NCBI GenBank assembly: GCA_045533115.1
Contig: JAZSHF010000005.1
Span: 3,268 to 67,267, forward strand
Reading direction: 5' to 3'
DNA from: Eubacteriales bacterium
Lineage (GTDB): Bacteria > Bacillota > Clostridia > Oscillospirales > CAG-272
Length of the DNA: 64,000 nt
Part shown: positions 3,275 to 64,000 of the stretch, in pieces
Layout: each line of letters opens with the position of its first letter
Numbering within the stretch: the stretch's first letter is position 1
Notes under the pieces: generated by a model
The model's database searches: none
What the model was told of the DNA's origin: nothing
What the model saw: the letters and a program-made list of their open reading frames with translations, nothing else
Translations under genes and position numbers: made by a program

Positions 3275-4342
3275 TTAATTTACAACCCCGTTATTTACGT
3301 CATAAACCTTACAGGGTGTATCAATTTTATCGCAGGACGTGATAATTACCTGCTTATTTTCGATACCGGAGAGGAGATATTCGCGTCTTTTTTCGTCAAG
3401 CTCACTCAGAATATCGTCAAAGAGGAACACGGGATAGGTTCCGCTGATCTCGCGTGAAATTTCGCCCTCGGCGATCTTCATTGAAAGAGCAACCGATCTT
3501 TGCTGTCCCTGCGAGCCGAAGGACCGAGCCTCGCGGCCGTTCAGCATTATTTCTATATCGTCCTTATGAGTGCCGTAGAGTGTCGCGCCGAACCGAAGCT
3601 CACGGTCACGGTTTTCATTAAGCAGCGAAAGATATTCTTCCTTCGTTTTTCGCGTCTGATAGGTCAGCTTAACACTTTCTTTACCCGCCGTCATATCGTT
3701 TATTATCTCATCTGCCGAAACGCTCAGGCGCGATATATAAATATCACGCTTTTCCGAGATAATTTCAGCCTCGGCGGCAAGCTGCTCGGCGTAAACGTCG
3801 GAAAGCAGGAAAATATTATCATCTCGGCGGTCACGCGCCATTTTTATAAGCGCGTTTCGCTGTGAAAGAAACGCGTTATATCTCTGAAGCGACCTTAGAT
3901 ACTCGGTATCGGTCTGTGACAGGGCATTGTCTATAAATTTTCGTCTTACCGACGGGCCGTCCTTGACTATCGACAGATGCTCGGGGCAGAAAAGCACGGC
4001 GCGGAATTTTCCGACGACCTCGGATAGGCGCGTTATGGGAGCTCCGTTCAGCGAGCAAAACCTTTTTCCGAGCCGAGGCACGAAGCGGAAAAGCATTTCG
4101 TTTTCGCGCTTGCCGTCGAAAAAGGTCATTTCTATCTGTCCGTATTCAGCCCCGAAGCGTACAAGCTCGTTTTCGTGCACCGTACGGAAGGATCGCCCTC
4201 CCGCGAAGAAATACACTCCTTCGAGTATATTCGTCTTTCCCTGCCCATTTAAGCCGTTAAAAACGGTAACTGTGGGTGATATTTCAAGTGACGCCTCTTC
4301 GATATTACGAAAATTCTTATATACGAGCTTACGGCAGATCAT
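3275..4342 (-). CDS. recF: DNA replication/repair protein RecF
   Basis: 355-aa ORF with the Walker A motif GLNGQGKTN and the SMC-like signature FGSQGQQRS. Overlaps the dnaN stop by 4 nt. Confidence 0.96.
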   Translation of the reverse strand: MICRKLVYKNFRNIEEASLEISPTVTVFNGLNGQGKTNILEGVYFFAGGRSFRTVHENELVRFGAEYGQIEMTFFDGKRENEMLFRFVPRLGKRFCSLNGAPITRLSEVVGKFRAVLFCPEHLSIVKDGPSVRRKFIDNALSQTDTEYLRSLQRYNAFLSQRNALIKMARDRRDDNIFLLSDVYAEQLAAEAEIISEKRDIYISRLSVSADEIINDMTAGKESVKLTYQTRKTKEEYLSLLNENRDRELRFGATLYGTHKDDIEIMLNGREARSFGSQGQQRSVALSMKIAEGEISREISGTYPVFLFDDILSELDEKRREYLLSGIENKQVIITSCDKIDTPCKVYDVNNGVVN

Positions 4343-5481
4343 CCGTTAAGACGAACGGGGAGAATGAGGAGTAAGAACTTGCTCGGACTGTCCGACGCTT
4401 CCTCGACCGTCATACTCATAAGAGGAGAGGTAAGGCAGAGCTTAATTCTCTCGCAGTCACATACCTTGATAGCGTCGTATAGGAAGCGGCAGTTGAAGCC
4501 GATCTCAATGTCCTCACCCTCGTGGTGAACGGAAATTACATCGTTTACGCGTCCCGTGACCGACGAGGAAGCGATAGTAAGCTGTCCTTCCTTAACGGTG
4601 CAGATAACGGGGCTCGGAATCTGTCCCTGACGTCTTTCTTCAGTTACGAGAAGAGCTCTTTCAAGGGCAGAAAGGAGATCTGAGGTATCAAGTGTAACGA
4701 ATATCTTGGGCGATTTGGGGATAAAGCGGTCGTAATCAATATACTGCGCGTCAATTCTTCTCGTAAAAAGAACGAATCTTCCTATGAAGAATATGATGTG
4801 CTTACGGGCAACGTAAATTTCCATTTCCTTATCGCTGTCGGAAATGAATCTCATAAGCTCGGAAATACTCTTACCCGGGATAATTACGTCAAAAGCAAGC
4901 TCACTTGTACCGACGCTTTCCATCGGCTCGGTCTCGGTCACGACCGAAAGACGGCTTCCGTCGCAGGAAACTGCCGAAAGGACTCCGTCCTCGACCTTGA
5001 GGTCAAGACCGTTAAGCTCGGGCTTTACGGAATTAACGGCGATAGCGAACTGTGTTTTCTGAATAATTGCGCGAAGCGCGTCCTGACGGATTTTGAATCC
5101 ACGGTCGCCTCTTAGCTCCGGCAGATCGGGAAAATCGGACGCCGAGAGCGCATAAAGCTCAAATTCCGACGTTCCTGCCGATATCTTTGCCTTTAGGTTG
5201 CTTTCGTTGATTTCAATCGTAAGAAGTCCGTCGGGCATTGCCTTTATTATCTGAATAAATCTCTGGCAGTTGATAATTCCCGCGCCGCCTTCCTCGACGA
5301 TACAGGTAACGGTCGTTTTCATACCCTTTTCAAGGTCGTAAGCGGTAAGCTCACAGGTATCGTTTGATATTGTTTTAAGAAGGATACCCTCGATCGACGC
5401 GATCGTGTTTTTGTTTGACGCAAAGCCCACTGAGGGGATAGCCGCCTCGAGAATTTCGTTTTTCATTACCTTGATCTTCAT
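4339..5481 (-). CDS. dnaN: DNA polymerase III beta sliding clamp
   Basis: 380-aa ORF with the three-domain clamp length, directly downstream of dnaA. Confidence 0.95.
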   Translation of the reverse strand: MKIKVMKNEILEAAIPSVGFASNKNTIASIEGILLKTISNDTCELTAYDLEKGMKTTVTCIVEEGGAGIINCQRFIQIIKAMPDGLLTIEINESNLKAKISAGTSEFELYALSASDFPDLPELRGDRGFKIRQDALRAIIQKTQFAIAVNSVKPELNGLDLKVEDGVLSAVSCDGSRLSVVTETEPMESVGTSELAFDVIIPGKSISELMRFISDSDKEMEIYVARKHIIFFIGRFVLFTRRIDAQYIDYDRFIPKSPKIFVTLDTSDLLSALERALLVTEERRQGQIPSPVICTVKEGQLTIASSSVTGRVNDVISVHHEGEDIEIGFNCRFLYDAIKVCDCERIKLCLTSPLMSMTVEEASDSPSKFLLLILPVRLNG

Positions 5482-6256: not shown

Positions 6257-7657
6257 TCAACGCTTCTTTATCCTATTTATAAGGTCTTTGATTTCCGCGT
6301 CAAACGACGGCTCTGTATTCATACGCTTTTCGACTGTTTCGATGGAATTTATGATCGTCGTATGGTCGCGTCCGAAAACTCGTCCGATCGCGGGGAGTGA
6401 ACGGTCGGTCAGCTTTTTGATAATATAGACTGATATATGTCTTGCCGACGCGACGTTACTCGTTCTTTTTCTGCTTTTAATGTCCTCGACCGTAATACCG
6501 TATTTCTGCGAAACCATCGTAAGAATTTTATCTATCGTTACCGTTACGGGTTCAGATCCGACAACCTGGTCGGAAATACATCTTATTGCGAGGTCAACGG
6601 ACACCTCAGCACCGGTCAGTATACACTGCGCCGAAATTCTCTTGACCGCGCCCTCAAGCTGACGGACGTTATCGGTGAGGTTTTCCGCTATGTAGCTTAC
6701 GACCTCTTCGGGGAATGTCATACCGAGCTTTTCAACCTTTTTCTTGACGATAGCCGCACGAAGCTCGAAATCCGGCGGATTGATATCAGCAATAATTCCG
6801 CCCTCAAAGCGTGTGCGTAAGCGCTCCTCAAGCCGCTCGATATCGCGAGGTGGAAGGTCGGAAACGAGGATTATCTGCTTTCCGTTTTCATACAGGTGGT
6901 TGAAGGTATTAAAAAATTCCTCTTGAGTCGACGCTTTGCCTGCAATAAACTGAATATCGTCGATAAGAAGCACGTCCGCCTGACGGTACTTTTCGCGGAA
7001 TTCGTGCCGCAGGTCGCGGGAAAGGGAATCTATCATCTGATTTGTAAATTCCTCTCCCTTTACGTATACGACCTTATATGACGGAAAATTTTCCTTCAGT
7101 CGGTTAGCTATTGCGTAAAGCAGATGCGTTTTACCGAGACCCGACGGGCCGTATATAAAGAGGGGATTTGCCTGACGCGCAGGATGGTTTGAAACCGACT
7201 GTGCCGCCGCATGTGCAAACTTGTTCGATTCACCTACGACGAAGGAATCAAAGGTAAATTCGGAAAACGCCGCGGGAACCGCCGCACGGTTAAGCACCTT
7301 ATTTTCTCCGACCGTAGAATAAATTTCGGTATTGACTTCACTCTTTTCCGCAGCCGCAATTATCTTTTCCGTCGTTTCCTTTTCGTTCTGAAGCGAACGA
7401 ACGGAAACAGTTACCTCAAATCCAATGACCTCAAAAAGAGCTTCCTTTATCTTGGTAAGATATCTGTTATGAATAATATCGCGCTTGAAATCTGACTTCG
7501 CCATAAAAACGGCGGTATCGTTTGTCAGAACCGTTAATTTAAGGTCTGAAAACCAGAGCTTCATAACGATATCGTCGTATCCGTTGATATCCTGAAGCTT
7601 CTTTTTCACGAGCGTCCATATCTCGTCAAATTGGTTGTTGTCGTTTATGTTTATCAT
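6257..7657 (-). CDS. dnaA: Chromosomal replication initiator DnaA
   Basis: 466-aa ORF with the AAA+ Walker A motif GPSGLGKTHL and a C-terminal DnaA-box-binding domain (RHISVYIIKKLT...IGRVFGRDHTT). Confidence 0.98.
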   Translation of the reverse strand: MININDNNQFDEIWTLVKKKLQDINGYDDIVMKLWFSDLKLTVLTNDTAVFMAKSDFKRDIIHNRYLTKIKEALFEVIGFEVTVSVRSLQNEKETTEKIIAAAEKSEVNTEIYSTVGENKVLNRAAVPAAFSEFTFDSFVVGESNKFAHAAAQSVSNHPARQANPLFIYGPSGLGKTHLLYAIANRLKENFPSYKVVYVKGEEFTNQMIDSLSRDLRHEFREKYRQADVLLIDDIQFIAGKASTQEEFFNTFNHLYENGKQIILVSDLPPRDIERLEERLRTRFEGGIIADINPPDFELRAAIVKKKVEKLGMTFPEEVVSYIAENLTDNVRQLEGAVKRISAQCILTGAEVSVDLAIRCISDQVVGSEPVTVTIDKILTMVSQKYGITVEDIKSRKRTSNVASARHISVYIIKKLTDRSLPAIGRVFGRDHTTIINSIETVEKRMNTEPSFDAEIKDLINRIKKR

Positions 7658-7796: not shown

Positions 7797-8287
7797 ACCT
7801 TCTCCAGTGGGAGAAGGTGTCAACCGAAGGTTGACGGATGAGGTGTTTCATAGGTAATGCAACTGACTTGATATAATAATATTTTAATTGTACAATACAC
7901 CTCATCCGACTTCGTTCGGCTTCGCCTCTCTCAGCCACCTTCTCCCGTTGGAGAAGGTAAAACAACGCGGCGAAGCATCGGAACGTCCTCTTGCCTTCCC
8001 CTCAGGGGAAGGTGTCGGTCAAAGGGTTCCTGAGGTGTAGGTTGCGAAGCAACCGTTATACCTTCTCCAGCGGGAGAAGGGGGACCACCGAAGGTGGTGG
8101 ATGAGGTGTAGGTTGCGAAGCAACCGCTATACCTTCTCCAGCGGGAGAAGGGGGACCGCGATAGCGGTGGATGAGGTGTAGGTTGCGGAGCAACCGCATC
8201 AAAAACAATGTAACATCACACCCGAACACCTCATCCGACTTCGTTCGGCTTCGCCTCACTCAGCCACCTTCTCCCGTTGGAGAAGGT
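7797..8287. repeat. Largest mosaic repeat block: one full element followed by an element with its internal left-arm module tandemly duplicated
   Basis: Full element at 7797-7967. The second block at 7990-8287 contains units of about 70 bp starting at 8032, 8103 and 8173. Confidence 0.9.
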
Positions 8288-15250: not shown

Positions 15251-15662
15251 ACCTTCTCCTGAGGGAGAAGGCGTCATTCGCTACGCGAATGACGGATGAG
15301 GTGTCGAGGGGTTCCCCGAAAACGAGCTTGTCGAGTTTTTGGGGGTTCCTGAGGTGTCTAAAAAGGGAACATACTCCTCATCCACCACTACGAGCGAACC
15401 CCAAACGCTCATTTCATTCGCATTTGGGAACCCCTCGCGTGGTCCCCCTTCTCCCACAGGAGAAGGTATTTAGTAACATCTTTTTGTCACGGCGGGAGCA
15501 GGCCCCCGCCCTACTACAAACAACGTGTCGAAGTATCAGGGCGTTGTCTTGCCTTCCCCTTGGGGAAGGTGTCAACCGAAGGTTGACGGATGAGGTGTCT
15601 AAAAGGGAACATACTCCTCATCCACCACCTTCGGTGGTCCCCCTTCTCCCTCAGGAGAAGGT
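15251..15662. repeat. Two mosaic hairpin repeats plus one REP, between two genes of the decarboxylase cluster
   Basis: Elements at 15251-15467 and 15551-15662 share the centre CTAAAAAGGGAACATACTCCTCATCCACCAC. REP GGCGGGAGCAGGCCCCCGCC CTAC at 15491-15514. Confidence 0.85.
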
Positions 15663-19034: not shown

Positions 19035-19063
19035 ATTGTAAAACAAAAAGTAAAATTTGTCAA
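19035..19063 (-). promoter_or_regulatory. Promoter of the decarboxylase operon
   Basis: On the minus strand: TTGACA at 19063-19058, a 17-nt spacer, TACAAT at 19040-19035. Confidence 0.6.
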
Positions 19064-19139
19064 TGATACGGTGTCAATTTGCAAGAAAAATTTCATATTT
19101 ATTATAATAAAAAATCTCCCCCAAAGGGAGAGGGGGAAA

Positions 19140-19307
19140 TGATATATCGCCTGCGGCGACATGATGCATTTGCTTCGCAAATATGATGTTGCTCCCGTTG
19201 GTCGCAATGATGCGATGTTTGCCACAAAACATTAGGCGAAGCCGACATCATTAGCGTCAGCGGCATCATTAGTAAAACGACATCATTTGCCGAAGGCAAA
19301 CATCATT
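19140..19307. repeat. Array of short hairpins separated by ATGATG (3 copies) then CATCATT (4 copies)
   Basis: ATGATG at 19161, 19183 and 19207. CATCATT at 19246, 19264, 19281 and 19301. Small hairpins lie between them: TCGCCTGCGGCGA, ATTTGCTTCGCAAAT, ATGTTTGCCACAAAACAT and TGCCGAAGGCA. Confidence 0.7.
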
Positions 19308-19349
19308 CAAAAAACGCACCTTTGTCGGTAGACAAAAGTGCGTTTTTTG
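19308..19349. terminator. Bidirectional intrinsic terminator (ends tRNA-Arg on the minus strand)
   Basis: 13-bp stem ACGCACCTTTGTC / GACAAAAGTGCGT with one mismatch, flanked by an A-run and a T-run. Confidence 0.8.
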
Positions 19350-19350
19350 T

Positions 19351-19426
19351 TGGCGCGCCCTAGAGGATTCGAACCTCTGACCTACCGGTTCGTAGCCGGG
19401 CACTCTATCCGCTGAGCTAAGGGCGC
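19351..19426 (-). tRNA. tRNA-Arg (anticodon ACG), CCA encoded
   Basis: The reverse complement GCGCCCTTAGCTCAGCGGATAGAGTGCCCGGCTACGAACCGGTAGGTCAGAGGTTCGAATCCTCTAGGGCGCGCCA folds as a cloverleaf with anticodon loop CTACGAA. Confidence 0.93.
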
Positions 19427-19543: not shown

Positions 19544-19707
19544 ACCTTCTCCGGCGGGAGAAGGTGGCGGCGAAGCCGACGGATGAGGTGTCAAAGAGTA
19601 TATCAAAGCGAATGTAATGAGCTTTGACAATTTCTTTGCTCTCTGAATTGGGAACCTACTCCTCATCCACCACCTTCGGTGGTCCCCCTTCTCCCTCAGG
19701 AGAAGGT
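19544..19707. repeat. Mosaic hairpin repeat
   Basis: ACCTTCTCCGGCGGGAGAAGGT GGCGGCGAAGCCGAC GGATGAGGTGT ... CTCCTCATCC ACCACCTTCGGTGGT CCCCCTTCTCCCTCAGGAGAAGGT. Confidence 0.85.
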
Positions 19708-19853: not shown

Positions 19854-20306
19854 TCATTTATTTCCCCTTATTTTCTTAAAAAACTCACTCAAAATCTCTT
19901 TGCATTCCTTTTCCATCACACCGCCGACGATCTCGGGGCGGGAGGAATAAGGATACGATGCAAGATTGATAAGACTTCCGAACGAGCCCTCGCGGTTATC
20001 GAAGGCGCCGAAAACCACCTTTTCAACGCGCGAATTTATAATTGCGCCCGCACACATCGGGCAGGGCTCGAGGGTAACGTAGAGAGTACAGCCCGTCAGG
20101 TGCCAGCCGCCGAGCTTTTGGCAGGCAAGCCGTATTGCGCTCGTTTCGGCGTGGGCGGTCGCATCAAAGGTCGTTTCGCGCTCGTTATGAGCGGAAGCTA
20201 TGACCTCACCGTTTCGGACGATAACGGCACCTATCGGCACCTCGCTCTTCTCTGCCGCCTTTTTCGCTTCCTCGAGCGCGAGGAGCATATATTTTTCGTC
20301 GGACAT
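19854..20306 (-). CDS. tadA: tRNA adenosine(34) deaminase
   Basis: 150-aa ORF with the CDA zinc motifs HAE and PCPMCAGA. Confidence 0.92.
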   Translation of the reverse strand: MSDEKYMLLALEEAKKAAEKSEVPIGAVIVRNGEVIASAHNERETTFDATAHAETSAIRLACQKLGGWHLTGCTLYVTLEPCPMCAGAIINSRVEKVVFGAFDNREGSFGSLINLASYPYSSRPEIVGGVMEKECKEILSEFFKKIRGNK

Positions 20307-27169: not shown

Positions 27170-27520
27170 ACCTTCTCCAGCGGGAGAAGGTGTCAACCGA
27201 AGGTTGACGGATGAGGTGTTCCACGGGAAATGCATTTGATTTGACGTAATCAAATTTTAATTGTACAATACACCTCATCCGACTTCGTTCGGCTTCGCCT
27301 CTCTCAGCCACCTTCTCCCGCTGGAGAAGGTAAAAAAACGCCCCGAAGCTTCGCCACGTCGTTAGCCTTCCCCTTGGGGGAGGTGGCGAGTGAAACGAGG
27401 CGGATGAGGTTAGGATGCGAAGCATCCGTCACAAAAATAATGTTACTTAATTAATACAACGCCGTCTGCGACGGCTAACCTCATCCGACGCCTTCGGCGC
27501 CACCTTCCCCAAGGGGAAGG
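27170..27520. repeat. Two adjacent complete mosaic hairpin repeats
   Basis: Element 1 at 27170-27333 (ACCTTCTCC type). Element 2 at 27365-27520 (CCTTCCCC type) has the centre CACAAAAATAATGTTACTTAATTAATAC. Confidence 0.9.
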
Positions 27521-27584: not shown

Positions 27585-28085
27585 TTATTTAACGTAGGTA
27601 ACTATCTTCCACTTCATTCCGCTCGGGGAATCGTCGGAAGTTGAGATAAACGTTTCGCTTTCACTTTCGATTTTCCAGCCGTTTTCGTCGAGGTTCGGGA
27701 AAAATGCATCGGCGGGAAGCTCGGCATCGAATTTCGTGACGTAAATTCTCTGACAGTACGGCAAAAATAGCTTATAGATACTGTCACCGCCGATAACTAC
27801 GGCGTTTTCGTCTTCGCCTATCATCGAGAGGGCTTCGTCAAGACCGTGTGCAACCTCGGCACCCTCTACCTTGTAGTCGGGATTTCTTGAAAGAATAATA
27901 TTTCTTCTGTTTTTCAGCGGTTGACCGTTCGGAAAGGTGGACAGCGTTTTTGAGCCGAGAATGACGGTCTTTCCGCTCGTGACTGAACGGAAATTGCGGA
28001 GATCGTCACGGACACGGCAGAGAAGCTCGCCCTTATAACCTATTCCCCAGCCGCGGTCAACGGCAACTATTGCCTCGAGCATCAT
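27585..28085 (-). CDS. folA: Dihydrofolate reductase
   Basis: [22 protein letters not shown]... and RRNIILSR are DHFR motifs. The start ATG at 28085-28083 overlaps the metK stop TGA at 28084-28082 (ATGA overlap). Confidence 0.9.
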
Positions 28086-29257
28086 TTGAGAAGTGCCGCA
28101 AGCGTGGGCGCTATATCGGTCTTTTCCCAACCTACGTTAAGCTCCTCGCGGCCGAGGTGACCGTAAGCGGCAAGAGGGGCGTAGATAGGACGGCGGAGAT
28201 CAAAACGCTTGATAAGTGCGGCGGGACGGAGGTCAACGAGCTGACAAATCTTATCGCAGATCACGTCCTCGGCAACCTTGCCCGTGCCGAAGGTATCTAC
28301 CATTACCGAAACGGGCTTCGCAACGCCGATAGCGTAAGCAAGCTGAACCTCGCATTTAGATGCAAGACCTGCCTTGACTATGTTCTTTGCAAGATAACGC
28401 GCGGCATAAGCACCCGTGCGGTCAACCTTCGTCGGATCCTTGCCCGAGAATGCACCGCCGCCGTGACGCGAATATCCGCCGTAGGTGTCAACGATTATCT
28501 TTCTTCCCGTAAGACCGGAATCACCGTGAGGCCCGCCTACGACGAAGCGTCCCGTCGGGTTAACGTATATTTTGGTATTTTCGTCAATAAGGTTCGACGG
28601 AACGGTCGCGTAAATAACGTGCTTTTTGATATCCTCTCTTATCTGCTCAAGGGTGATCTCCCCGTCGTGCTGTGAGGAAACGACGACTGTGTCGATGCGG
28701 ACGGGCTTGTCGCCGTCGTATTCAACCGTCACCTGCGTCTTTCCGTCGGGACGGAGATAGGAAAGCGTGCCGTTCTTTCTGACTTCTGTGAGCTTCTTTG
28801 CGAGCGCGTGCGAAAGGGAGATCGGGAGCGGCATAAGCTCGGGGGTTTCGTCGCAAGCGTAGCCGAACATCATACCCTGGTCGCCTGCACCTGTGTCAAG
28901 GCCGTCGCCGTTGCCTTCCTTAGCCTCGTAGGAGAGGTCAACTCCGAGGGCGATGTCGGGGGACTGACCGTGTACCATATTGATAACGGCACAGGTGTCG
29001 CAGTCGAAGCCGTACTTGCCGCGGTCGTATCCGATCGCTCTTACCGCCTCGCGTGCGATAGTCTGGAAATCAATGACCGCGGTGGTCGTTATTTCGCCCA
29101 TTATCGAGATAACGCCCGTCGTGACGGTCGTCTCACACGCAACGCGCGCCATCGGGTCGAGTTCAAGTATCGCGTCAAGGACGGAGTCGGAAATTTTGTC
29201 GCAAATTTTGTCGGGATGACCTTCGGTCACCGATTCGGATGTAAATAGTTTTTTCAT
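28082..29257 (-). CDS. metK: S-adenosylmethionine synthase
   Basis: 391-aa ORF with the motifs GHPDK, GAGDQG and GGGAFSGKD. Confidence 0.98.
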
Positions 29258-29308: not shown

Positions 29309-29467
29309 AAAAAGACCCTCGCAGAACGAGGGTCATCTTTTCTTCAAATTAACTCTCATCTGCCCGGATTTGGCACCTTTTTGGTTTATTTTGGGCGTTT
29401 ATCACGCTTAAACCAAATGGTTGTCGGGCTTCACAGGGCCGGTCCCTCCGCCACTCTTGATAAGAAC
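29309..29467 (-). promoter_or_regulatory. SAM-I (S-box) riboswitch with terminator, in the metK leader
   Basis: The minus strand reads TTCTTATCAAGAGTGGCGGAGGGACCGGCCCTGTGAAGCCCGACAACC...GGTGCCAAATCCGGGCAGATGAGAG. The terminator GACCCTCGTTCTGCGAGGGTC followed by TTTTT comes next. Confidence 0.9.
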
Positions 29468-60636: not shown

Positions 60637-62109
60637 TTAGTTATCAATTATATTGCCATACTCATCGTAATGAATAACGTTATAGATTTCTCCGTCAGCA
60701 TTATAAAAGGTTCCGGTCTTTACTTCACCGTTTTCGTGGTAGTCGTAGCAGACCTTTTCGTCGGGATAGTAGTAGGTTTCGCTCGTGCGGATCTCGTTTT
60801 CATTATAGTGCGTTTCAATTTTGAGATTTCCGTCGGCGTCGTACTGATTTACCAATTTATAATTGCCGTTATCGTAGTATGTGAAGACGTTTCGGCTTCC
60901 GTCCTCAAATCCGCCAATATACTCAATTACGTAAGATTCTTCTTCCGCGTTATTGAAATTACGCGTTATGTCTATGATGCGTTTTTCTCTAATATTTCCG
61001 TTGTCAAAATAGCTTTCGAAGGTGAAAATATTGCCGTCAAGGGACTCTTTTTGTGAGAGCACTCCGGGTGAGCCGTATGTTTCTCTGTATATTACTTCTG
61101 TTCGTTCGGAATCGTTTTCAGAAGGAAGGGTGATTCGCTTTTCAAAAACACTTCCGTCGGAGAAATATTCAATACTGACCTCGTTTCCGTCCTCATTATG
61201 ATACATTTCATATTCAATAGTGCCGTCGTCACGATATGAGCGCTGCCAAATGACTTTGCCGGTGGAGTCATTGAATTTAATGTACTCTTGCTCTGACCAT
61301 ATCTGATCTGTGTATTCGTGATAGCTGACATCGTGGCATTTCACGGTTCCGTCGGAAAGGTAAGTGAATTCGTAATTTTCGGTGATCCATTTTGTGCCGG
61401 AGTCATCTACTTTATAGTACACTCGCCGCTTAACTCTATTCGAAAAGTCCTTAACCTCGTAGCTGTACTGGTCGTACATATCGTCGTATTGAGGTTTTCC
61501 GGTGTGCCAGAAGGTGCCGAGCTCTTCATCGTAAGTCGTTTCAACCTTTTCATTCACCTGAGAATACATTTCCCAGACGTCGCTTCCCGCTTTAATAGAA
61601 ACGGTTTTTCCGTCAATAAGGTCTGCCATCACGGCTTTCTGGGAGTCGGATAAGCCCAAGTCCTCAAGCTGACTCATCATTTCCGATTTTACGGCCTCGG
61701 CGTTTTCAGATTCTATTGTCATATTGATGTTAGCACCGGTGAATCTGAAGTTGCATTTATTGCCCTTCATTTCAGAGCCGCCGAAGTGCAGGATCTCAAC
61801 GGTGAATTTGTAGGCGTGTCCTGCCGACGTCTTGGACGTGCTTTCGGACTTTGAGAAATAAAGAACCACGCCGTCTCCGACAATAAGCTCTGTGGATTCA
61901 TTCGTCCCGTCATCTTTTTCGGTCGAAACAATGATGTTTTTGCTTAAATGCTCCTTGACCTTTTCCATATCCATGGGAAGTTCTTTTACGTCACCGAAAA
62001 CCTTTTCGAGGTTTTCGTTTGCCTGCTTGCCAGACATAAATGAGTCTGAACAAGAAAACATTGATAATACGATAAATATGGTTAAGATCAAACATGAAAA
62101 ACGCTTCAT
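60637..62109 (-). CDS. Lipoprotein with MORN-variant / YwqK-like repeats
   Basis: Signal peptide and lipobox LSMFSC. C-terminal repeats of the Y..DG....E..Y..NG type. The gene is visibly more AT-rich than the housekeeping core. Confidence 0.7.
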   Translation of the reverse strand: MKRFSCLILTIFIVLSMFSCSDSFMSGKQANENLEKVFGDVKELPMDMEKVKEHLSKNIIVSTEKDDGTNESTELIVGDGVVLYFSKSESTSKTSAGHAYKFTVEILHFGGSEMKGNKCNFRFTGANINMTIESENAEAVKSEMMSQLEDLGLSDSQKAVMADLIDGKTVSIKAGSDVWEMYSQVNEKVETTYDEELGTFWHTGKPQYDDMYDQYSYEVKDFSNRVKRRVYYKVDDSGTKWITENYEFTYLSDGTVKCHDVSYHEYTDQIWSEQEYIKFNDSTGKVIWQRSYRDDGTIEYEMYHNEDGNEVSIEYFSDGSVFEKRITLPSENDSERTEVIYRETYGSPGVLSQKESLDGNIFTFESYFDNGNIREKRIIDITRNFNNAEEESYVIEYIGGFEDGSRNVFTYYDNGNYKLVNQYDADGNLKIETHYNENEIRTSETYYYPDEKVCYDYHENGEVKTGTFYNADGEIYNVIHYDEYGNIIDN

Positions 62110-62277
62110 AAAAAACCCTCTTTTCTGTAATTTTTGATGTTATACCGGGGATTGGGTCGACTTTTCCTTATATCGCTTTGCTTATTATCATTATATCATA
62201 GTTTGGCTTAGTGTTCAAGGGGTAATAAAAATCCCCCGTATATAACGAGGGATTTCTGCTTCTGGTGCGGGTAGCGT

Positions 62278-62400
62278 GGTTTTCCACTTTTCTTGCTCGT
62301 GCAAGAAAAGTTACAAAAGAAACACGCCACAGAGGACAACGGGCTTGAATTTTGCCTATGCAAAATTCTGCACACGTTTTCCCCTTTGGAATCCCCTTTC
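62278..62400. repeat. Family-E 125-bp repeat (third copy)
   Basis: CCACTTTTCTTGCTCGTGCAAGAAAAGTTACAAAAGAAACACGCCA...GAATTTTGCCTATGCAAAATTCTGCACACGTTTTCCCCTTTGGAATCCCCTTTC aligns with 5878-6004 and 60191-60334. Confidence 0.85.
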
Positions 62401-62445
62401 TTTTTTTGCGTATAGTTAGTCGTCGCAAAACTTCGTATTCTACCC

Positions 62446-62474
62446 TTGACAAATCACACTTCAAATGTTATAAT
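62446..62474 (+). promoter_or_regulatory. Consensus promoter of tRNA-Leu
   Basis: TTGACA at 62446-62451, a 17-nt spacer, TATAAT at 62469-62474. Confidence 0.75.
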
Positions 62475-62494
62475 ACATAGCGTCAACTAAATAT

Positions 62495-62581
62495 GCGGGT
62501 ATGGCGGAATTGGCAGACGCGCTAGATACAGGTTCTAGTGACTTCACGGTCATACAGGTTCAAGTCCTGCTACCCGCACCA
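62495..62581 (+). tRNA. tRNA-Leu (anticodon CAG), class II with long variable arm, CCA encoded
   Basis: GCGGGTATGGCGGAATTGGCAGACGCGCTAGATACAGGTTCTAGTGACTTCACGGTCATACAGGTTCAAGTCCTGCTACCCGCACCA. The anticodon stem is CTAGA/TCTAG and the loop is TACAGGT. Confidence 0.85.
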
Positions 62582-62588
62582 AAGCATT

Positions 62589-62638
62589 CAAACCCGAACC
62601 TTTTACCAATCGGTGAAACGTTCGGGTTTGTTGTTTTC
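62589..62638 (+). terminator. Intrinsic terminator after tRNA-Leu
   Basis: CAAACCCGAAC ... GTTCGGGTTTG followed by TTGTTTT. Confidence 0.75.
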
Positions 62639-62745
62639 TTAAACGTTCATACATAAGTCTTTGTTTGTGGCAGTACGGAGTTAGTCGCTCTGTACTGCCA
62701 CTTCTTCGTTTCAAAGAAATTTCGTACATAAAAGGAGATTTTGAA

Positions 62746-62904
62746 ATGAAGATTCTTAAAACAGTTGTTTTGATATTATTGATAGCAGTAAATTTACAGA
62801 CTGGATATTATGCTTTGTTGTATAAGGCAACAACATCAACAGGTGCTTTTCTAATATGTTTAGGTATCACCTTGTTTGTTGCAAGCGATGGCGGCATTAA
62901 TTAA
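62746..62904 (+). CDS. 52-aa two-TM hypothetical membrane peptide in the low-GC region
   Basis: MKILKTVVLILLIAVNLQTGYYALLYKATTSTGAFLICLGITLFVASDGGIN, with the RBS AAAGGAGA 7 nt upstream. Confidence 0.5.
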   Translation: MKILKTVVLILLIAVNLQTGYYALLYKATTSTGAFLICLGITLFVASDGGIN

Positions 62905-62952
62905 TACTAAAAATTATTACTATACAAATTACCTCTTTACAAACTAAAATAG

Positions 62953-62992
62953 AAAAAGCTCTTTCAACACCTAACGATTGAAAGAGCTTTTC
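62953..62992. terminator. Bidirectional terminator between convergent island genes
   Basis: AAAGCTCTTTCAA ... TTGAAAGAGCTTT flanked by A and T runs. Confidence 0.7.
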
Positions 62993-62994
62993 TG

Positions 62995-64000
62995 TTATTC
63001 TATTTCTTCAACTTTGATGATATTTCTAAGATGAATATTGTGGTGTATAAAGTTTTTACTATCTAATTGCTGCATAACTTCGTCATATACCGGTGCCTTT
63101 CCTTTTGGGTCACGTATAGTAAGAAGCAAACAGTATTCTTGTGACAATTGATAATTCTTGTCTGTAGCGTCTTGTTCTATAAAATCTCTGAACAATCCCT
63201 CAATTTTTAGATACCACTTTCTATCTTTTCCTAAATACCGTTCCTTATTAGAAGGTGTAACATCTCCTAAGTCTACGGCATATTTTTTTATCGGGTGAAA
63301 TTTCTTTCCATATTTCACCAAAGTGCATTCGCGTTCAAAACCATTTTGCGGATAAACACCTTTAGTTCTTGAACTATAACAGTTATCTAACAATAGATTT
63401 TGTGCTTCGTCAATACCTTTTGGGTTTTTAATTGTGGGCTTAGTGATATCTCTATCTTTTTCATTTTGATATGTTCCAAAGAAAATGTCAATATTTGACT
63501 GACAATATTCTCCTGCCTGCTTGTCATCAAGTAAAGATTTTGTAACAAGTGTTACAATAATTTGGCCTTTAAAATAACCATCCTCATCAATTAAACTTTC
63601 GGGATACGGAAAGTCAAACATTTCAATAAAACTGCCCTTATCTAATGTATCACGCAAAATTAATGTTATTTCATCAGAGGAGTTATATAACATTTCATCC
63701 ACGCTAGATGGTTTCCCAAATCCCATTTGACCAATTTTATCGGACATATTCATATTGCACCCTGTAGGATACTTGGCATTATGAATCAAGAGAGCTTTGA
63801 TAAGTAGCGGATCGAAATTATTATTCATTAAATATGATATTTCTGCAGCCATTCGAGTGACCCAAGGAGTTGAAAAACTTGTTCCAACATTATATGCGGG
63901 GGTCCCATCAATACCAAAAGAAGGTACACCCGTTATGTGAAGTTTTCCATTATGCATTCCCGCATTACCGCCATAAAAAACTAAATCGGGTTTTACAATA
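62995..64000 (-). CDS. S8 (subtilisin-family) serine peptidase, C-terminal part; the gene continues past the window end
   Basis: Catalytic-Ser motif GTSFSTPWV. The reading frame stays open upstream of the track's Met to position 63999 (...IVKPDLVFYGGNAGMHNG...). The DNA is strongly AT-rich. Confidence 0.8.
   Translation of the reverse strand, partial: IVKPDLVFYGGNAGMHNGKLHITGVPSFGIDGTPAYNVGTSFSTPWVTRMAAEISYLMNNNFDPLLIKALLIHNAKYPTGCNMNMSDKIGQMGFGKPSSVDEMLYNSSDEITLILRDTLDKGSFIEMFDFPYPESLIDEDGYFKGQIIVTLVTKSLLDDKQAGEYCQSNIDIFFGTYQNEKDRDITKPTIKNPKGIDEAQNLLLDNCYSSRTKGVYPQNGFERECTLVKYGKKFHPIKKYAVDLGDVTPSNKERYLGKDRKWYLKIEGLFRDFIEQDATDKNYQLSQEYCLLLTIRDPKGKAPVYDEVMQQLDSKNFIHHNIHLRNIIKVEEIE

Follow-up and report, generated by a model that had tools for sequence, protein, structure and literature searches.

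Between the gene for tRNA-Arg(ACG) and a biotin-dependent decarboxylase operon, the DNA studied here, a 64-kb stretch, from an uncultured gut bacterium of the Eubacteriales, that we call the window, carries an array of mini-hairpins set apart by the box AATGATG and its reverse complement CATCATT. Comparison with relatives and metagenomes gives good support to the view that gut Clostridia carry a dispersed intergenic element, quasi-palindromic and conserved in structure, and that this array is one of its gene-less ('solo') copies. The array is of the same superfamily as the motif Gut-1 (RF01706), and its arms are, again on good support, the hairpin-decorated version, found in Clostridia, of the inverted heptamer arrays around genes of the family PF05635.

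Architecture of the array and its family

A motif search places ATGATG at 19161, 19183 and 19207 of the plus strand and CATCAT(T) at 19246, 19264, 19281 and 19301, with spacings of 22 and 24 nt on the ATGATG side and of 18, 17 and 20 nt on the CATCATT side; these are the seven boxes that an earlier, sequence-only reading of this DNA had pointed out. From the 42 ATGATG/CATCAT sites of the whole window about 0.1 would be expected per 146 nt, as against seven observed in the 146 nt of the array, and a scan of the window for clustered 6-mers found no second array of the AATGATG kind. The family covariance model R1 aligns a degenerate eighth box (AATGATA, 19138-19144) as the last one, so that the design is 4+4 and not 3+4 as the sequence-only reading had it; its division into left-arm and right-arm modules, mutually reverse complementary, was correct. 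All core coordinates are read on the minus strand and collected in Table 1. The core matches R1 over positions 1-170 of the 170 in the model (169.8 bits, E = 3.5e-38), and a search of the window with the model returns this one copy, 19138-19307 (-). Hairpins H1, H4, H5, H6 and H7 are sound, and H2 and H3 have decayed, their spacers (19253-19263 and 19271-19280) being reduced to 2-bp stems. The core folds better than every shuffled version of itself, on both strands equally (z = -4.08 and -4.12).

The window copy is one of many. A first scan for a three-box pattern, covering one genome per species and also returning chance and tandem-repeat matches, found the AATGATG unit in at least about twenty metagenome-assembled genomes (MAGs) of Clostridia (Oscillospiraceae, Faecousia, Ruminococcus and 'Eubacteriales'), and a more specific pattern found it in at least 120 metagenome contigs and three IMG/VR contigs. 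The search for further ATGATG-spaced hairpin arrays that had been proposed from the sequence has thus yielded one array in the window and at least 152 copies overall, 147 of them unique, from Clostridia MAGs and from gut, rumen and digester metagenomes; these numbers are lower bounds for genome and metagenome scans alike. The consensus unit runs from a CCA end into the module ACAAAAAA-stem-TTTGTCtaccGACAAA-stem-TTTTTTG, followed by four repeats of AATGATG plus hairpin, the centre GGCAAACATCG and three to four repeats of CATCATT plus hairpin; in most loci a promoter of the form TTGAMA-17-TATAAT then touches the last box. For R1, 29 full copies were used and the local hairpins set as the structure; the window copy has every part of the family plan: four boxes, a centre GGCAAACATYG, four inverted boxes and a preceding terminator. 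This terminator (19308-19349) is an integral 5' module of the element, and with its A-run and T-run it can work in both directions. An equivalent hairpin, conserved at the apex and covarying in the outer stem, precedes the arrays behind many different tRNAs.

The contexts of the family are diverse. Among the matches listed, 51 of the 129 copies with sufficient upstream sequence begin 31-49 nt past a co-oriented tRNA or tmRNA gene, measured from its 3' end, and 18 tRNA species are represented among the tRNAs that precede arrays. Genes downstream of the arrays are unrelated between loci. In L205 and L213 full units follow one another in tandem and every unit brings its own terminator; in L203, L207 and L249 small cassettes have arrays at their flanks. 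Where arrays break off at the centre, the neighbour is an MmeI-type gene in L054 and a partial PF05635 gene in L110. Half arrays, in one orientation or the other, are found within 5' leaders and in intercistronic gaps, as between era and recO in L057 and also in L088, L107 and L111. The left arm of the window copy is identical to those of L074 and L249, which have other contexts.

Three of these loci deserve a closer description. L205 (1278-1936, and likewise L213) carries three complete units in tandem, followed by an array with a further box type, GTGAAG/CTTCAC. Behind tRNA-Ser(GGA), L203 holds an island (minus orientation, about 150-1700) made up of an array, a promoter, a PF05635 gene, a GNAT acetyltransferase gene and a second array; it ends in a 21-nt copy of the tRNA-Ser 3' end followed by another terminator, and looks like an integrated element that is bounded by att-like repeats and lacks an integrase. 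In L030 (about 4100-4480), terminator and array lie between two copies of a directly repeated stretch of about 33 nt (ttgcgcagatgcaaacgaatcccttcaagccca). The upstream copy of this repeat ends in CCA at a place where ARAGORN calls no tRNA, and the duplication may be of the att type, at an unrecognised RNA gene.

Covariation in the seven local hairpins was assessed in 102 model-aligned copies, an alignment that favours structure because it was fitted to the model. Paired cells make up 93.2% of the total, compared with 77.0 +/- 0.4% for shuffled partners and at most 52.8% for slid ones. Two-sided changes occur in 31 of 36 pairs, compensatory cells number 495 as opposed to 130 +/- 10 in the shuffles, and none of 500 shuffles attains the observed values. 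An independent, strand-neutral hairpin parse agrees with this picture. The two checks suggested by the sequence-only reading, folding of both strands and covariation, both came out in favour of structure. Boxes, H1 (TTTGCC-ttc-GGCAAA) and centre are nearly invariant across the family; the stems of H2-H7 vary freely, and H5 keeps a conserved tandem G.A within its stem. A long-range helix of 10 bp, P1 (GATGTTTGCC:GGCAAACATC), pairs box 1 and the 5' half of H1 (19295-19304) with the centre (19214-19223). In the window this inverted repeat matches at 10 of 10 positions, and over the 102 copies 98.0% of its cells are paired, with three two-sided changes. Concerted three-way variants are found in two lineages (TTTGCT/AGCAAACATC and TGTTCC/GGAACA/GGAACACATC), and a comparable three-way relation exists at the Gut-1 locus of L030. 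The prevailing feature of the predicted minimum-energy folds is box-to-box pairing of the arms, which remain complementary in each box type seen (AATGATG/CATCATT, GTGAAAT/ATTTCAT and TATATCATC/GATGATATA). A consensus from RNAalifold on the raw alignment was set aside as evidence, since it chose box-to-box pairs only because the boxes are invariant.

The two arms differ in the strand on which their structure appears best kept. Read on the tRNA-sense strand, the non-Watson-Crick pairs of the left arm comprise 69 A.C and 33 G.T, and those of the right arm 73 G.T and 14 A.C; as the alignment model favours G.U on the sense strand, the excess of A.C in the left arm is conservative. In the AATGATG orientation a strand-neutral hairpin search counted 16 pyrimidine-pyrimidine mismatches and none of the purine-purine type; the strand reading 5'-CATCATT is the one with GNA or GNRA loops. 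In each arm it is the strand leading outward from the centre that looks 'optimised'. Together with the half arrays in either orientation, this bias argues against one RNA, read from one strand, as the whole story and fits outward-running transcripts or element ends.

The syntenic site was compared in eight loci (L001-L008), which were obtained through homologues of the adjacent carboxyltransferase and whose identities refer to that protein. An AATGATG array stands at the same place in L002 (89%), L003 (88%) and L006 (76%), with the order of the boxes conserved, and also their spacing, as the sequence-only reading would require; L003 has tRNA-Leu(TAG) upstream, and different genes there as well. 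Arrays of like build with the box TATATCATC/GATGATATA occupy the site in L004 (88%) and L005 (83%), and L001, the best protein match (93%), has ATTTCATC boxes only. In L007 (75%) and L008 (68%) the array is absent and the operon promoter is retained.

Relation to Gut-1, PF05635 and other repeats

An Rfam scan of the array finds nothing at the gathering threshold. The only meaningful match below it is to Gut-1, with 25.9 bits at 19275-19345 (-) and 21.9 bits at 19107-19194 (+) against a cut-off of 50, and by this score the window copy is no member of Gut-1. The two have in common the gut Clostridia as hosts and runs of short consecutive hairpins with C-UUC-G-type triloops, split by one repeated 7-nt box and backed by covarying base pairs, which for the AATGATG family means the 31 of 36 pairs of the model-fitted alignment. 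The box itself differs, being GUGAAAU or GUGAUAU in Gut-1 and AAUGAUG in the window array, and so does the extent: the Rfam consensus comprises three hairpins of one arm with the linker GUGAAAU, whereas a unit of the window type comprises terminator, four boxes, centre and four inverted boxes.

Our set also contains true Gut-1 matches. L030 (80.8 bits) has the order tRNA-Arg, terminator, four (G)TGAAAT units, five ATTTCAT units, tRNA-His, and L082 scores 56.3 bits; the array of L001 reaches 28.5 bits, and that of L004, with its TATATCATC boxes, gives no Gut-1 match in Rfam. The Weinberg seed alignment holds arrays with GUGAUAU boxes behind tRNA-Arg and a terminator, followed by AUAUCAC units. 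GTGAAAT and AATGATG boxes are mixed within one array in L088, arms of different box types adjoin in L082 and L107, and a core (R)ATGA is common to all box types, including the abundant GGATGAGG box of the window. The discoverers of Gut-1 graded it as a likely RNA with covariation and gave its occurrence only as human-gut sequences (Weinberg et al. 2010, Genome Biol 11:R31, PMC2864571). An orphan since 2010, with 43 metagenome sequences and no context, Gut-1 now appears as one quarter of a larger mirror-symmetric unit, a motif with several box types that is located at tRNA 3' ends in uncultured gut Clostridia.

A further link leads to PF05635, the '23S rRNA intervening-sequence protein', a four-helix bundle. 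A gene of this family follows many of the arrays; tblastn detects one in at least 38 loci, and among the matches listed its open reading frame (ORF) starts 192-242 nt after box 1 in 23 of the 110 copies with sufficient downstream sequence. L137 and L168 share flank and left arm; the arms are adjacent in L137, which is empty, and in L168, which is filled, a ribosome-binding site and a PF05635 ORF lie between the left arm and the CATCATT right arm. Three matches of the first scan from outside the Clostridia proved to be PF05635 genes of Bacteroidia, Chloroflexaceae and Verrucomicrobiaceae MAGs with contiguous heptamer arrays alongside, and in the Bacteroidia and Verrucomicrobiaceae loci reverse-complement heptamers stand 3' of the gene.

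An unbiased test was made by comparing the PF05635 protein with plasmid records, which gave 12 matches from five phyla (L252-L263) chosen regardless of repeats. Heptamer-type repeats accompany the gene in all 12, and in nine the number of reverse-complement 6-mers common to its upstream and downstream 120 nt exceeds that of every one of 500 shuffles; examples are AATTCGT/ACGAATT in Nostoc and AGGAATGAGG/CCTCATT in Monoglobus. The general plan is a 7-nt unit 5' and its reverse complement 3', near stable-RNA genes or inside operons. A hairpin stands between successive heptamers in the Clostridial arms, whereas the heptamers are contiguous in the other phyla. The window has the 5' array (AATGATG x4) and the inverse 3' array (CATCATT x4), with no PF05635 ORF between or beside them. 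Hosts among the plasmid records include Bernardetia, Monoglobus, Nostoc, Planktothrix, Chlorohelix and Gloeocapsa.

In these records PF05635 genes stand as lone small genes within defence and other operons (hsdS-hsdR, drmD-mmeI, DUF1156-Swt1-HEPN and an RND adaptor-permease pair) and upstream of cas1. A search of the literature for the repeat, for Gut-1 and for PF05635 together with repeats brought up no account of the heptamer flanks; one CRISPR survey mentions '23S rRNA IVP', solely in the legend to a figure, as one of the proteins linked to CRISPR adaptation modules. The link to PF05635 offers a handle on why genes for intervening-sequence proteins lie scattered and single between unrelated genes, and on the purpose of the tandem heptamer repeats beside them, and it accounts for repeat finders flagging such loci as CRISPR-like. 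For annotation, the arrays mark terminator-promoter gaps and hot spots of accessory genes. In L084 (about 2000-2060, minus orientation) a PF05635 gene truncated at its 3' end is followed by CATTGAAA-17-TATAAT, which repeats the promoter abutting the array, as if the gene had been inserted at the junction of box and promoter.

PF05635 genes and their inverted heptamer arrays might even constitute an undescribed class of miniature selfish 'intervening-sequence-like' cassettes in many phyla, sited by or in stable-RNA genes and between the genes of operons, with arms that fold out of the host transcript. Gut-1, the AATGATG array and the GGATGAGG elements of the window would then be facets of one system and gene-less arrays its solo arms, and the cyanobacterial STRR heptamer repeats would possibly be another facet. 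We regard this wider picture as conceivable, while on balance leaning against it.

Among known repeats, the REP, BIME and REPIN sequences of Enterobacteria and Pseudomonas are abundant extragenic palindromes that form mosaic clusters and inverted pairs after genes, near terminators, and are thought to act through structure, by protecting mRNA 3' ends or by insulation. In REPs the sequence of the hairpin is conserved, whereas in the AATGATG family the linker boxes are invariant, the stems of H2-H7 vary freely and a GTAG motif is missing; nor was a RAYT transposase seen, though none was looked for. The BOX elements of pneumococci (boxA-(boxB)n-boxC) are likewise modular and intergenic, with variable internal units and a long stem-loop; their modules are of 45-59 nt and conserved sequence and are not known to bear any sequence relation to the AATGATG array.

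Closer at hand is the main mosaic family of the window, with 39 GGATGAGG boxes where 1.4 would be expected. Its layout is a CCTTCTCC..GGAGAAGG hairpin, a variable GAA-loop hairpin, GGATGAGG, a centre of 20-80 nt, CCTCATCC and more hairpins, and several of the centres hold a promoter-like TTGATA-17-TACAAT that faces the right arm. The sequence-only reading had seen the same logic in these elements and the array, and rightly so, since in both the order is hairpin and then box on the left arm, and complementary box and then hairpin on the right. They also share the box core ATGA and GAA/TTC mini-hairpins such as GGCGAAGCC, and the segment GGCGAAGCCGA, already noted as common to both, is found again in the neighbouring GGATGAGG element at about 19565-19575. 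The differences are that the mosaic elements have one box per arm and extra CCTTCTCC...GGAGAAGG hairpins, that the AATGATG array is single in the window, and that the R1 search gave no match to the window's GGATGAGG/CCTCATCC elements. The suggestion of a diverged repeat subfamily is therefore right as to a repeat family and wrong as to a simple offshoot of the main one, because the array belongs to a large family of its own, which it matches with the full score given above and which has Gut-1 relatives in Rfam. The GGATGAGG box further resembles the GGAATGAGG heptamers beside the Monoglobus PF05635 gene.

Possible roles and competing explanations

As to function, our tentative preference, to which we give slightly less than an even chance, is that the AATGATG element acts through its structure as an insulator or processing stem and not as an operator. 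Transcription into or out of the element would allow the mini-hairpins to form and the complementary arms to pair, and the product would be a long branched stem with terminators on either side. Such terminators flank the array in the window, in the syntenic relatives and in the tandem arrays. The stem would insulate the strongly expressed tRNA from the downstream operon, and it would also be a double-stranded site for processing, presumably by an enzyme of the RNase III type, or for stabilisation. The model here is the stem of rRNA intervening sequences, which are excised by RNase III. In copies that bear cargo, the stem would separate the PF05635 transcript from those of the host. The family may spread or recombine among terminator-proximal sites, chiefly tRNA 3' ends. 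The window copy, being without cargo, would be an insulator at most and is possibly a relic.

Several observations count against this interpretation. The boxes never vary within the family, so the pairing of arm with arm is without support from covariation, and half arrays that stand alone in both orientations relative to neighbouring genes imply that such pairing is not obligatory. The opposite strand bias of the two arms is not what a single RNA across both would predict. Absence of the array from the more distant L007 and L008, which retain the operon promoter, makes it dispensable for the operon. Most Clostridial loci have the PF05635 gene after a complete 4+4 array and not between the arms, and in the window tblastn finds no PF05635-like ORF anywhere in the 64 kb; two hairpins of the window copy are moreover decayed.

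A rival reading is set at the level of DNA. The arms could form the inverted termini of a very small, non-autonomous element that moves or recombines, whether MITE-like, an attachment site or a cassette boundary, with boxes and hairpins recognised on the strand that runs 5' to 3' outward at each end; PF05635 and small genes would be the cargo, and the window copy would be empty. We judge this somewhat unlikely in itself and nearly as good as the structural reading, and it explains the outward strand symmetry better: G.T pairs, purine-purine mismatches and GNA/GNRA loops on the 5'-CATCATT strand of each arm are the symmetry expected of element ends. Mobility would also suit a unit that, among the matches listed, follows 18 tRNA species and a tmRNA and lies within operons too, that shares an identical left arm with L074 and L249 in other contexts, and whose syntenic slot holds other box types or no array. 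The tandem copies, the cassettes flanked by arrays in L203, L207 and L249, the truncations or junctions at the centre in L054 and L110, the 33-nt direct repeat around terminator and array in L030, and the insertion of PF05635 genes between genes of conserved operons point the same way. Yet no transposase or recombinase was found associated with the arrays (Y1 transposases were not searched for), and the window copy has neither a target-site duplication nor a second tRNA-Arg 3' end. The free variation of the hairpins would be unusual for ends recognised by a protein, and the tRNA 3' fragments that bound the L203 islands indicate an ordinary integrase acting at the tRNA and not at the array.

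The structural reading must also be set against a stand-alone small RNA, either the plus-strand transcript of about 235 nt that the sequence-only reading had proposed or a Gut-1-type small RNA on the tRNA strand, whose single-stranded boxes would bind or sponge a protein. The strong covariation of the hairpins, the grading of Gut-1 as a likely RNA, a plus-strand promoter scoring 10/12, a terminator usable in both directions and a repetition of hairpin and box like that of protein-binding RNAs in general all speak for it. It is nevertheless improbable in our view. The -10 of the plus-strand promoter (19079-19108) is not kept in the syntenic relatives L001-L003, and the other loci that were read show no evident antisense promoter, so the case for the plus-strand transcript in particular is weak. 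On the tRNA strand the array begins right after the terminator, which leaves no space for a promoter. Arrays stand in either orientation relative to transcription, the arms have their opposite strand bias, and both strands fold equally well.

Least probable of all, and in our estimate very unlikely, is an iteron or operator array, that is, protein sites on double-stranded DNA controlling the decarboxylase operon or the tRNA gene. Heptamers that are direct and inverted upstream of a promoter, with the last box abutting the -35 in many loci, would be in keeping with it, but binding to double-stranded DNA does not explain palindromic spacers that covary. Iterons belong to one replicon or regulated gene and have structure-free spacers; here the flanks vary and the spacers are covarying hairpins. 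The genes downstream are unrelated between loci, L007 and L008 lack the array and keep the operon promoter, and sister genomes have other box types at the syntenic site. With units behind 18 tRNA species and within operons in both orientations, the iteron-like array once suggested for this DNA has found no backing.

Three other candidates were rejected. Coding falls away because the frames of the mini-ORFs (MMFAFGK*, MMSFY*) and of the minus-strand ORFs of 52-65 aa are not kept between L002 and the window, and is excluded too by the variable length of hairpin loops and by arrays in both orientations. A leader or attenuator of the decarboxylase operon was dismissed since the array lies upstream of the operon promoter, which is conserved also where the array is missing. 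An island bounded by a repeat of the tRNA-Arg 3' end would need a second copy of that end, and the window has none. Inspection of the consensus by eye for a central promoter that could drive divergent transcription gave nothing convincing.

Flanks of the array and other features of the window

Table 1. Positions of the element, its parts and its flanks in the window, with examples of the mosaic family.
Feature	Positions	Strand	Basis and remarks
tRNA-Arg(ACG), upstream neighbour	19351-19426	-	ARAGORN, Rfam; element begins at its CCA end
Intrinsic terminator of tRNA-Arg, A-run and T-run	19308-19349	-	terminator scan
Core: 4 x (AATGATG + mini-hairpin), centre, 4 x (CATCATT + mini-hairpin)	19138-19307	-	family covariance model R1
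Left arm	19240-19307	-	motif search, hairpin parse, R1
Boxes 1-4	19301-19307, 19281-19287, 19264-19270, 19246-19252	-	left arm
Hairpin H1	19286-19300	-	left arm
Hairpin H4, 3 bp	19235-19243	-	left arm
Centre motif GGCAAACATCG	19213-19223	-	10 nt (19214-19223) complementary to 19295-19304
Right arm	19138-19212	-	motif search, hairpin parse, R1
Boxes 5-8	19206-19212, 19183-19188, 19160-19166, 19138-19144 (degenerate)	-	right arm
Hairpin H5, with tandem G.A	19189-19207	-	right arm
Hairpin H6	19168-19182	-	right arm
Hairpin H7	19147-19159	-	right arm
Second terminator-like hairpin and T-run, closing the element before the operon promoter	19108-19135 (scan: 19132-19116)	-	terminator scan
Promoter-like TTGCAA-18-TATAAT	19079-19108	+	promoter scan 10/12; doubtful
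Promoter-like TTGACA-17-TACAAT of the biotin-decarboxylase operon	19035-19063	-	promoter scan 11/12; flank, outside the element
Examples of mosaic elements	7836-8236, 15294-15623, 19581-19668, 27209-27486		

The bracketing of the array by terminator-like hairpins, recognised in the sequence-only reading, is confirmed by the minus-strand scan, in which 19349-19308 and 19132-19116 each have the G+C-rich hairpin and following T-run of a rho-independent terminator. The second of these recurs at the equivalent place in five array-bearing syntenic relatives, and the operon promoter TTGACA-17-TACAAT is conserved in relatives with and without the array. Downstream, on the minus strand from 18972, Pfam matches identify the five genes of the decarboxylase operon as carboxyltransferase, OAD gamma, biotin carrier, OAD beta and alpha subunit.

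Just upstream of tRNA-Arg(ACG) lies a gene for a TadA-like deaminase (MafB19-deam / dCMP_cyt_deam_1, 19854-20306, minus strand), and the pairing of the two is kept in L004, L005 and L007. tRNA-Arg(ACG) is the substrate of TadA.

Elsewhere in the window, positions 85-385 hold at least seven copies of DnaA-box-like 9-mers (TTATCCACA, TTTTCCACA and their complements). The cluster adjoins gyrB (746-2668), recF (3275-4342), dnaN (4339-5481) and dnaA (6257-7657), all on the minus strand, and is therefore probably part of the chromosomal origin region; the cumulative GC skew turns near 8-10 kb. A SAM-I riboswitch (29353-29466, minus strand, 65.7 bits) lies upstream of an ORF of 391 aa (28082-29257). 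At 62001-64000, just after tRNA-Leu(CAG) (62495-62581), G+C is 0.36 compared with about 0.50 elsewhere, and this segment may be foreign DNA next to a tRNA gene.

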